From NCBI RefSeq assembly GCF_057098645.1, contig NZ_CM169472.1: a DNA stretch of 64,000 nucleotides. The stretch is one strand, 5' to 3'. The notes under the pieces are model-generated. The model searched no databases. It saw nothing but the letters and a program-made list of their open reading frames with translations, and was not told where the DNA came from. The translations under genes were made by a program, and so were the position numbers. The stretch's first letter is position 1; each line of letters begins with the position of its first letter. Shown piece after piece: positions 39,228 through 42,539 of the stretch.

Positions 39228-40493
39228 TTAACCTGAACGACGACGATTACGCGGAGCGCCAGTACGACGCGGACCATTGCCTGTACGTGGGCGCGTGAGG
39301 CGCAGCGGTTTTGGCAGATCGGTCATCAATGTGTCCGGATTGTATTTGCTTACCGGAATTGAGTGACCAATATAGGTTTCAATAGCAGGCAAATTCAATG
39401 CATACTCTTCACACGCCAGGCTGATAGAGTGACCGCTTGCGCCTGCGCGACCTGTACGACCAATACGGTGAACGTAATCTTCACAGTCATCGGGTAAATC
39501 GTAGTTAAAGACGTGCGTCACTGCCGGAATATGCAAACCACGCGCGGCAACGTCGGTGGCAACCAGAATATCCAGATCGCCACGGGTAAATTCATCAAGA
39601 ATACGCAGACGTTTTTTCTGCGCGACATCGCCTGTCAACAAACCGACACGATGACCATCTGCCGCCAGGTGGCCCCAGATCTCTTCACAACGGTGTTTGG
39701 TATTGGCGAAAATAATCGCTCTGTCTGGCCACTCTTCTTCGATCAGCGTTTGCAGCAAACGCATTTTTTCTTCGTTAGAAGGGTAGAAAAGCTCTTCTTT
39801 AATACGGTGGCCCGTTTTCTGTTCCGGTTCCACTTCAATATATTCGGCATTGTTCATCTGCTCGAACGCCAGTTCACGTACCCGGTACGAAAGCGTGGCG
39901 GAGAACAGCATGTTGAGGCGCTGGTTTGCAGGCGGCATACGGCGGAACAGCCAGCGGATATCTTTAATAAAGCCCAGATCGTACATGCGATCGGCTTCGT
40001 CCAGTACCACTACCTGAATGGCACCGAGGTTAATGTGGTTCTGCTTGGCGTAGTCAATTAAACGACCCGTGGTGCCAATCAGAATGTCAACGCCGCTTTC
40101 CAGCACTTTCAGCTGTTTGTCGTAACCATCACCACCGTAAGCCAGACCCAGCTTCAGGCCGGTAGCTTCCGCCAGCGGTTCCGCATCGGCATGGATCTGC
40201 ACGGCAAGTTCACGCGTCGGTGCCATAATTAAGGCACGCGGCTGATTCACCTTGCGATCGGCAATCGCAGGATGAGAGAGAAGATAATGAAACGTTGACG
40301 TAAGAAACGCCATCGTTTTCCCGGTACCGGTTTGCGCCTGCCCGGCTACGTCACGACCCGCCAGCGTCAGCGGAAGGGCCAGTGCCTGAATGGGCGTACA
40401 GTTATGAAACCCTTTTTTTTCAAGGGCTTCTACAACCTTCGGATGCAGGGCGAAGTCGGAAAACTTCTGTTCTGTTAAATGTGTTTTGCTCAT
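39228..40493 (-). CDS. rhlB: DEAD-box RNA helicase RhlB
   Basis: 421 aa; DEAD box (VVLDEADRM), Walker A-like AQTGTGKT, Arg-rich C-terminus. Confidence 0.95.
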
Positions 40494-40623
40494 AGTGTGG
40501 TAGAATATCAGCTTACTATTGCTTTACGAAAGCGTATCCGGTGAAATAAAGTCAACCTTTAGTTGGTTAATGTTACACCAACAACGAAACCAACACGCCA
40601 GGCTTATTCCTGTGGAGTTATAT

Positions 40624-40953
40624 ATGAGCGATAAAATTATTCACCTGACTGACGACAGTTTTGACACGGATGTACTCAAAGCGGACGGGGCGATCCTCGT
40701 CGATTTCTGGGCAGAGTGGTGCGGTCCGTGCAAAATGATCGCCCCGATTCTGGATGAAATCGCTGACGAATATCAGGGCAAACTGACCGTTGCAAAACTG
40801 AACATCGATCAAAACCCTGGCACTGCGCCGAAATATGGCATCCGTGGTATCCCGACTCTGCTGCTGTTCAAAAACGGTGAAGTGGCGGCAACCAAAGTGG
40901 GCGCACTGTCTAAAGGTCAGTTGAAAGAGTTCCTCGACGCTAACCTGGCGTAA
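40624..40953 (+). CDS. trxA: thioredoxin 1
   Basis: Start at [13 protein letters not shown], 109 aa, active site WCGPC. Confidence 0.97.
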
Positions 40954-41093
40954 GGGAATTTCATGTTCGGGTGCCCCGTCGCTAAAAACTGGACGCCCGG
41001 CGTGAGTCATGCTAACTTAGTGTTGACTTCGTATTAAACATACCTTATTAAGTTTGAATCTTGTAATTTCCAACGCTTCCCATTTTATCTTAA

Positions 41094-41195
41094 ATGCGAA
41101 GTGAACAGATTTCTGGCTCGTCGCTCAATCCGTCTTGTCGTTTCAGTTCTGCGTACTCTCCTGTGACCAGGCAGCGAAAAGACATGAGTCGATGA
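41094..41195 (+). CDS. rhoL: rho operon leader peptide
   Basis: 33-aa ORF MRSEQISGSSLNPSCRFSSAYSPVTRQRKDMSR in the rho leader. Confidence 0.75.
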   Translation: MRSEQISGSSLNPSCRFSSAYSPVTRQRKDMSR

Positions 41196-41279
41196 CCGTA
41201 AACAGGCATGGATGATCCTGCCATACCATTCACAACATTAAGTTCGAGATTTACCCCAAGTTTAAGAACTCACACCACT

Positions 41280-42539
41280 ATGAATCTTACCGAATTAAAG
41301 AATACGCCGGTTTCTGAGCTGATCACTCTCGGCGAAAATATGGGGCTGGAAAACCTGGCTCGTATGCGTAAGCAGGACATTATTTTTGCCATCCTGAAGC
41401 AGCACGCAAAGAGTGGCGAAGATATCTTTGGTGATGGCGTACTGGAGATATTGCAGGATGGATTTGGTTTCCTCCGTTCCGCAGACAGCTCCTACCTCGC
41501 CGGTCCTGATGACATCTACGTTTCCCCTAGCCAAATCCGCCGTTTCAACCTCCGCACTGGTGATACCATCTCTGGTAAGATTCGCCCGCCGAAAGAAGGT
41601 GAACGCTATTTTGCGCTGCTGAAAGTTAACGAAGTTAACTTCGACAAACCTGAAAACGCCCGCAACAAAATCCTCTTTGAGAACTTAACCCCGCTGCACG
41701 CAAACTCTCGTCTGCGTATGGAACGTGGTAACGGTTCTACTGAAGATTTAACTGCTCGCGTACTGGATCTGGCATCACCTATCGGTCGTGGTCAGCGTGG
41801 TCTGATTGTGGCACCGCCGAAAGCCGGTAAAACCATGCTGCTGCAGAACATTGCTCAGAGCATTGCTTACAACCACCCGGATTGTGTGCTGATGGTTCTG
41901 CTGATCGACGAACGTCCGGAAGAAGTAACCGAGATGCAGCGTCTGGTAAAAGGTGAAGTTGTTGCTTCTACCTTTGACGAACCCGCATCTCGCCACGTTC
42001 AGGTTGCGGAAATGGTGATCGAGAAGGCGAAACGCCTGGTTGAGCACAAGAAAGACGTTATCATTCTGCTCGACTCCATCACTCGTCTGGCGCGCGCTTA
42101 CAACACCGTTGTTCCGGCGTCAGGTAAAGTGTTGACCGGTGGTGTGGATGCCAACGCCCTGCATCGTCCGAAACGCTTCTTCGGTGCGGCGCGTAACGTG
42201 GAAGAGGGCGGCAGCCTGACCATTATCGCGACGGCGCTTATCGATACCGGTTCTAAAATGGACGAAGTTATTTACGAAGAGTTTAAAGGTACAGGCAACA
42301 TGGAACTGCACCTCTCTCGTAAGATCGCTGAAAAACGCGTCTTCCCGGCTATCGACTACAACCGTTCCGGTACCCGTAAAGAAGAGCTGCTCACGACTCA
42401 GGAAGAACTGCAGAAAATGTGGATCCTGCGCAAAATCATTCACCCGATGGGCGAAATCGATGCAATGGAATTCCTCATTAATAAACTGGCAATGACCAAG
42501 ACCAATGACGATTTCTTCGAAATGATGAAACGCTCATAA
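41280..42539 (+). CDS. rho: transcription termination factor Rho
   Basis: Start at [14 protein letters not shown], 419 aa, Walker A PPKAGKT. Confidence 0.97.

Follow-up and report, generated by a model that had tools for sequence, protein, structure and literature searches.

The rhoL-rho leader as a very probable cis-acting site of Rho autoregulation, with conservation in the leader RNA

The region between the start codon of rhoL and that of rho is very probably the transcribed leader of rho and the cis-acting site of Rho autoregulation; in our judgement the RhoL peptide is not what selection maintains. We examined this region (41094-41279, from the rhoL ATG through the last base before the rho ATG) in a 64,000-nt stretch of contig NZ_CM169472.1 (RefSeq assembly GCF_057098645.1), hereafter the window. 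An earlier note on the same DNA had read it as a regulatory element rather than as spacer, on the grounds that Rho terminates within its own leader. The established attenuation of rho, published Rho-dependent 3' ends and the conservation of the leader RNA all bear out the regulatory reading, and the first interpretation is supported in this sense; the mechanism itself has been known since the 1980s. The comparison with relatives, set out below, indicates where in the leader selection may have acted.

Identity and setting of the small open reading frame

The 33-codon ORF that had been noticed between trxA and rho is exactly as described (Table 1). The order trxA, small ORF, rho, all on one strand, is confirmed by the coordinates, and the same layout is found in RefSeq E. 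coli genomes. The ORF encodes the peptide MRSEQISGSSLNPSCRFSSAYSPVTRQRKDMSR, and it lies in the same frame as rho, its ATG being 186 nt upstream of the rho ATG.

Table 1. Features of the trxA-rho region, in window coordinates
Feature	Position	Strand	Remarks
rhlB	ends 40493	-	
trxA	40624-40953	+	
trxA-rho spacer			326 nt
Putative rho (rhoL) promoter	41023-41051	+	TTGACT 41023-41028, 17-nt spacer, TATTAA 41046-41051; recognised by eye and by conservation
5'-proximal hairpin	41074-41103	+	predicted; outer stem CGCUUC/GAAGUG, inner stem CAUUU/AAAUG
rhoL ORF	41094-41195	+	ATG 41094, TGA 41193-41195; 33 codons and stop
Long stem-loop	41114-41198	+	predicted; covers most of rhoL
C-rich, G-poor candidate rut tract	41209-41299	+	from just after rhoL into the first rho codons
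Mapped Rho-dependent termination zone	41280-41367	+	rho start; 3' end at 41330, bicyclomycin-region peak at 41367 (Adams et al. 2021, supplementary files 2 and 3)
rho	41280-42539	+	
wecA	from 42779		

On sequence grounds the small ORF is unambiguously the annotated E. coli rhoL, because the RefSeq annotation, a protein family match and near-identity to strain MG1655 all identify it. The label "rhoL: rho operon leader peptide RhoL" stands on exactly this ORF in every E. coli record among the matches listed (35 rows), and the peptide matches the NCBIfam equivalog model NF007433 over its whole length (95.2 bits against a cutoff of 85, E = 1.5e-27, alignment 1-33 of 33). In K-12 MG1655, rhoL is b3782 (3966231-3966332) and rho (b3783) begins at 3966417; MG1655 coordinates are window coordinates plus 3,925,137. 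The two sequences differ by three substitutions in the 801 nt compared (40902, 41082 and 41123), and they agree fully in the ORF, in its placement relative to rho and in the peptide, which amounts to no substantive difference between the leaders. The stretch is present at 95% identity or more in 5,425 of 5,426 complete E. coli genomes (megablast of 40950-41300). The leader has no exact match in any complete E. coli genome of the collection, the best match being 99.5%. No Pfam domain was found in the RhoL peptide.

Upstream of trxA, an Rfam scan placed the TrxA_thermometer family (RF02773) at 40554-40653 on the + strand, in the trxA 5' UTR, with 78.8 bits against a gathering score of 58 (E = 1.9e-13). 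The same scan found no family in the rho leader, its remaining match being a sub-threshold Fluoride hit inside rho. Downstream of the trxA stop there is a hairpin without a U tract (40960-41008, + strand; dG -20.3 kcal/mol, z = -1.49), whose 3' arm, CTGGACGCCCG, is invariant in eight aligned Enterobacteriaceae. Published Term-seq 3' ends of trxA, at MG1655 3966142 and 3966145, correspond to 41005 and 41008 in the window, just upstream of the putative rho promoter.

That promoter is largely conserved in an eight-species alignment. A consensus promoter scan of 40400-41700 called nothing; it missed this promoter because the -10 hexamer, TATTAA, lacks the final T. Judged from these hexamers, transcription would start near 41058 and the leader would measure about 222 nt. 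The trxA-rho spacer of the Salmonella-like sequences is longer than that of the window (418 nt vs 326 nt), the extra sequence lying between trxA and the rho promoter.

Rho-dependent termination and a candidate Rho-loading tract

Attenuation by Rho of its own transcription in the rho leader goes back to Barik (1985) and Matsumoto (1986), as cited in PMC6582626 and PMC12121999. Published mapping in K-12 transfers directly to the window because the two sequences are nearly identical. In the bicyclomycin comparison by DirectRNA-seq of Adams et al. 2021 (PMC7815308), a Rho termination region peaks at 3966504, which is 41367 in the window (Rho score 7.8, p = 1.3e-215), and downstream coverage rises from 297 to 2386 reads with bicyclomycin. 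A Term-seq 3' end of the same study lies at 3966467 (41330), 50 nt into rho; it has a Rho score of 7.07, is flagged "Yes", and has an intrinsic-terminator score of 1.2, the threshold being 3. Another Term-seq 3' end, seen in two other growth conditions, is at 3966322 (41185), in rhoL codon 31 and on the 3' flank of the predicted long stem. This end is without a Rho score and may result from processing; on the predicted fold, it may be a point of release upstream of the others, or else the end left when an attenuated transcript is trimmed as far as the stem.

Thus, of the claim that Rho autoregulates by terminating within its own leader, the autoregulation stands, whereas the strongest bicyclomycin-sensitive signal lies 50-90 nt inside the rho coding sequence and not in the leader. 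The check by term-seq with and without bicyclomycin, which the earlier note had proposed for the leader, is in large part covered by the published K-12 data.

Other published observations concern the same region. ChIP of RNA polymerase, with the rhoL region as the reference for normalisation, gives a 12-fold increase in occupancy within rho for the rho R66S mutant (PMC12121999), and IS2 insertions in rhoL are rho-down alleles. In Salmonella, the small RNA SraL is reported to counter attenuation in the rho leader (Silva et al. 2019, through a secondary citation). For Bacillus subtilis rho, the same logic of self-attenuation is described (Ingham 1999, as cited in PMC6582626), with an unrelated leader sequence.

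We infer that the best candidate for a Rho-loading (rut) site is the C-rich, G-poor tract that begins 14 nt past the rhoL stop. In 78-nt windows its C/G ratio is 2.0-2.6, which places it at the 99.3rd-99.9th percentile of the + strand of the 64-kb window, and it lies 30-70 nt upstream of the mapped bicyclomycin-sensitive sites. There is a second, weaker pyrimidine-rich stretch at 41053-41143. A Rut peak in the rho 5' UTR has been found by H-SELEX (PMC9499579).

A canonical Shine-Dalgarno sequence is lacking ahead of the rho start codon (41255-41279), and in many of the sampled Gammaproteobacteria (L002-L081) a stretch of 15-25 nt leading up to the rho ATG is rich in C and poor in G, as in ...aagaacccaccattATG and ...catccaccacaATG. 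Within the sample the leader cannot be aligned beyond Enterobacterales, although trxA-rho synteny and a C-rich, Shine-Dalgarno-poor region before rho are found in many of the Gammaproteobacteria.

A small conserved hairpin (41205-41222, + strand) holds two nested AUGs, at 41208 and 41212. The ATG at 41208 is in the rho frame and would extend Rho by 24 codons; the one at 41212, with an AGG 5 nt upstream, opens a 9-codon ORF (MILPYHSQH, then a stop). This ORF is kept by most Enterobacterales of the sample, Yersinia and Photorhabdus among them, and is interrupted in L004, L006 and L009. We considered both as coding, the first as the start of an N-terminally extended Rho and the second as a mini-ORF, and rejected both, as each is without a coding signature and is broken in some relatives.

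Conservation of the leader RNA and the coding status of rhoL

Leaders of relatives were gathered by three routes, one of which, a pattern scan of metagenomes, added 14 leaders, mostly near the Citrobacter-like or Salmonella-like ones; a look-up with the exact Rho protein yielded E. coli-type loci only. Statements about relatives apply to this sample, which holds no authentic Klebsiella pneumoniae or Enterobacter cloacae complex genome. In a comparison of 14 Enterobacteriaceae sequences, variable sites make up 28% of the leader (41120-41279) and 64% of the wobble positions of rho (p = 3e-11). Over its final ~80 nt the leader can still be recognised as conserved in Yersinia and Photorhabdus, while the body of rhoL cannot. 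The conservation continues into rho, where wobble sites of the first 17 codons (41280-41330) vary in only 2 of 17 cases, in comparison with 113 of 176 downstream (p = 3e-5). This pattern suggests a constraint at the level of RNA over early rho, overlapping the mapped termination zone.

The behaviour of rhoL in the same 14 sequences is quite different from that of a protein-coding gene. Its variable sites are spread evenly over codon positions 1, 2 and 3 (8, 11 and 9; p = 0.69 against a uniform distribution), whereas those of rho number 9, 5 and 121. The rhoL ATG occurs only in Escherichia among the genera sampled, being absent from Salmonella-like, Citrobacter-like and other Enterobacteriaceae leaders, and some relatives have indels of 1 nt or 5 nt in the leader, with the rhoL TGA moved or lost. 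The frame is open in most relatives, which is to be expected where the nucleotides themselves are conserved. Altogether, rhoL failed the test of protein-coding behaviour, whether by conserved start, by frame or by synonymous excess. Nor is there a purine-rich Shine-Dalgarno sequence upstream of the rhoL ATG (ttttatcttaaATG). The length of the ORF is by itself statistically unremarkable, as a complete ATG ORF of at least 33 codons turned up in 1089 of 5000 dinucleotide-preserving shuffles of the 222-nt leader and in 1996 of 5000 of the 326-nt spacer (22-40%).

The lack of a coding signature weakens the claim of a conserved peptide and leaves the identity of the ORF with the annotated E. coli gene untouched. 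Because the leader varies less than the wobble sites of rho, and does so without a codon-position bias in rhoL, we judge that the leader RNA, and not the RhoL peptide, is the conserved and selected object. Moreover, given the constraint on the final ~80 nt of the leader and on the opening 17 codons of rho, selection would be strongest over the RNA on which Rho should load and act.

Several of the relatives carry annotations or changes that touch on the same frame. ORFs of 27-44 amino acids have been called "RhoL-like" with ATC, ATT or ATA starts in Salmonella-like (L083, L086, L087, L089 and L090) and Citrobacter-like (L085 and L088) sequences; these calls are probably homology-driven annotation of a conserved RNA region. 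In L005, L113 and L115, both stops between rhoL and rho have been lost (TGA to TGG, TAA to TTA or CTA). The rhoL frame of L005 and L113 runs open into rho, while in L115 a 2-nt deletion puts it out of register with rho; a canonical start far enough upstream for a full-length RhoL is absent from all three.

Two structures are predicted in the leader. The 5'-proximal hairpin is stable (dG -10.4 kcal/mol, z = -4.86, with none of 200 shuffles as stable), and it is predicted at the equivalent place in most of the relatives folded, with compensatory changes in the outer stem (for example UGCUUC/GAAGCA in Superficieibacter) and a variable apex. In the predicted fold the rhoL AUG (41094-41096) is in the 3' arm of the inner stem. 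Position 41082 is A in the window and G in MG1655 and the other retrieved leaders of E. coli (cccAtttt vs cccGtttt), and the change from G to A turns a G.U pair of this hairpin into an A-U pair. The long stem-loop (predicted dG -27.5 kcal/mol, z = -1.95) is recovered in the consensus fold as well; its covariation term is +0.21, with changes on both sides in only 4 pairs, so that covariation among sequences this similar lends it little support.

Taken together, we propose the following mechanism. Transcription would start downstream of the trxA 3' end, at about 41058, and the nascent leader would be pyrimidine-rich and G-poor, moderately so in the upstream stretch and strongly so in the candidate rut tract. 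Rho hexamers would load on this RNA, perhaps including its upstream part, and RNA polymerase would be released a few tens of nucleotides further on, where the leader ends and within the first ~50-90 nt of rho. More active Rho would then mean fewer full-length rho transcripts. The conserved entity would be the hairpin together with the leader body and the C-rich tract, and the rhoL AUG would be a variant, specific to Escherichia, in the apical region of that hairpin. Any role of rhoL translation would be in cis, through the folding of the leader or the covering of its upstream pyrimidine-rich half, and in this lineage only.

Possible roles of rhoL translation and comparison with other leaders

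It would be tempting to regard rhoL as a translated regulatory upstream ORF, an idea that would supplement rather than exclude autoregulation through the leader RNA, and that we consider possible but doubtful. Ribosomes translating rhoL would unfold the predicted long stem, cover the upstream pyrimidine-rich RNA and thereby alter Rho loading, so that Rho synthesis would respond to translation capacity or to Mg2+, as in mgtL-mgtA, corL-corA and the topAI upstream ORF. These systems, together with tnaC (mgtL-mgtA and corL-corA being from Salmonella), resemble the rho leader in having a long 5' leader with a short ORF, a rut-like tract and premature termination by Rho close to the start of the regulated gene. 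In favour of the idea, the published text of PMC11429745 gives a Ribo-RET signal at the rhoL start, with an increase of at least 3-fold when Mg2+ is low, so that the small ORF, for which the earlier note had proposed ribosome profiling, may be translated in E. coli. In addition, rhoL overlaps both the predicted long stem and a YC-rich stretch, and EcoCyc lists it among leader peptides.

However, several points speak against a role of this kind. In mgtL, corL, tnaC and the topAI upstream ORF, translation has been shown to set the accessibility of the rut site and the ORF is conserved, whereas the rhoL start is confined to Escherichia and has no Shine-Dalgarno sequence, its AUG lying in a predicted hairpin stem. 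The AUG is absent in Salmonella, Citrobacter and others sampled, although their leader is conserved, and both autoregulation and control by SraL are reported in Salmonella. The strongest rut-like tract lies beyond the rhoL stop, and hence would be left uncovered by ribosomes on rhoL. Tetracycline, which has an effect at topAI, caused no significant change in RNA polymerase occupancy within rho (PMC12121999). The rho leader differs from all four systems also in that the regulator is the product of the gene itself.

The comparison with Salmonella bears on the same point. From about 41110 to the rho ATG, the Salmonella-like sequences, which stand for the rho leader reported to be under the control of SraL (RyjA) by Silva et al. 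(2019), are nearly identical to the window, yet they are without the rhoL ATG. In the E. coli leader no pairing site for SraL (RyjA) could be assigned, the best 24-nt local duplex reaching -19.2 kcal/mol against a shuffled-leader mean of -21.5.

A more specific idea is that an Escherichia-only variant in the apex of the hairpin made the rhoL AUG, whose weak and condition-dependent translation would open the predicted long stem, cover the pyrimidine-rich RNA upstream and so add an input from translation capacity to Rho homeostasis, with the non-AUG "RhoL" calls in Salmonella-like and Citrobacter-like sequences being artefacts. We regard this idea as speculative and rather unlikely.

That RhoL is a functional small protein acting in trans seems very improbable to us. 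It is an annotated protein with an NCBIfam equivalog model of its own, and phenotypes in RpoS activity and in lake-water fitness have been reported for rhoL deletions. Against this stand the even distribution of changes over codon positions, the lineage-specific start codon, the frameshifts in relatives and the lack of a Pfam domain. Moreover, deletions of rhoL or insertions in it necessarily alter the rho leader and so the levels of Rho, which is a simpler account of the phenotypes.

A classical ribosome-mediated attenuator of the trpL or hisL type, with a choice between terminator and antiterminator, is hardly credible: rhoL shares with trpL, hisL, thrL, ilvL and pheL the position of a short ORF upstream of the regulated gene and the annotation "leader peptide", whereas the intrinsic terminator, the alternative hairpins and the stalling at cognate codons that mark those leaders are all lacking in the rho leader, whose + strand has no G+C-rich hairpin with a U tract (a scan of 40400-41700 returned no terminator-like site, and the predicted structures end without one), which has no run of regulatory codons tied to the function of the product, and whose termination is bicyclomycin-sensitive, with a sub-threshold intrinsic-terminator score at the mapped 3' end.

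Thus, the leader RNA as a cis-acting site of Rho autoregulation is the reading that we prefer. Rho terminates a large fraction of the transcription units of E. coli, and an element that sets the levels of Rho is physiologically important. Since the rho leader is already known and annotated, what we add is modest and comparative in nature, namely that selection appears to act on the 5' hairpin, on the C-rich tract and on about 17 codons at the start of rho. The results also advise caution against treating rhoL as a bona fide small-protein gene, and phenotypes of rhoL deletions should not be read as effects of the peptide. We suggest viewing rhoL as belonging to a conserved regulatory RNA, in preference to calling it a conserved gene for a small protein.
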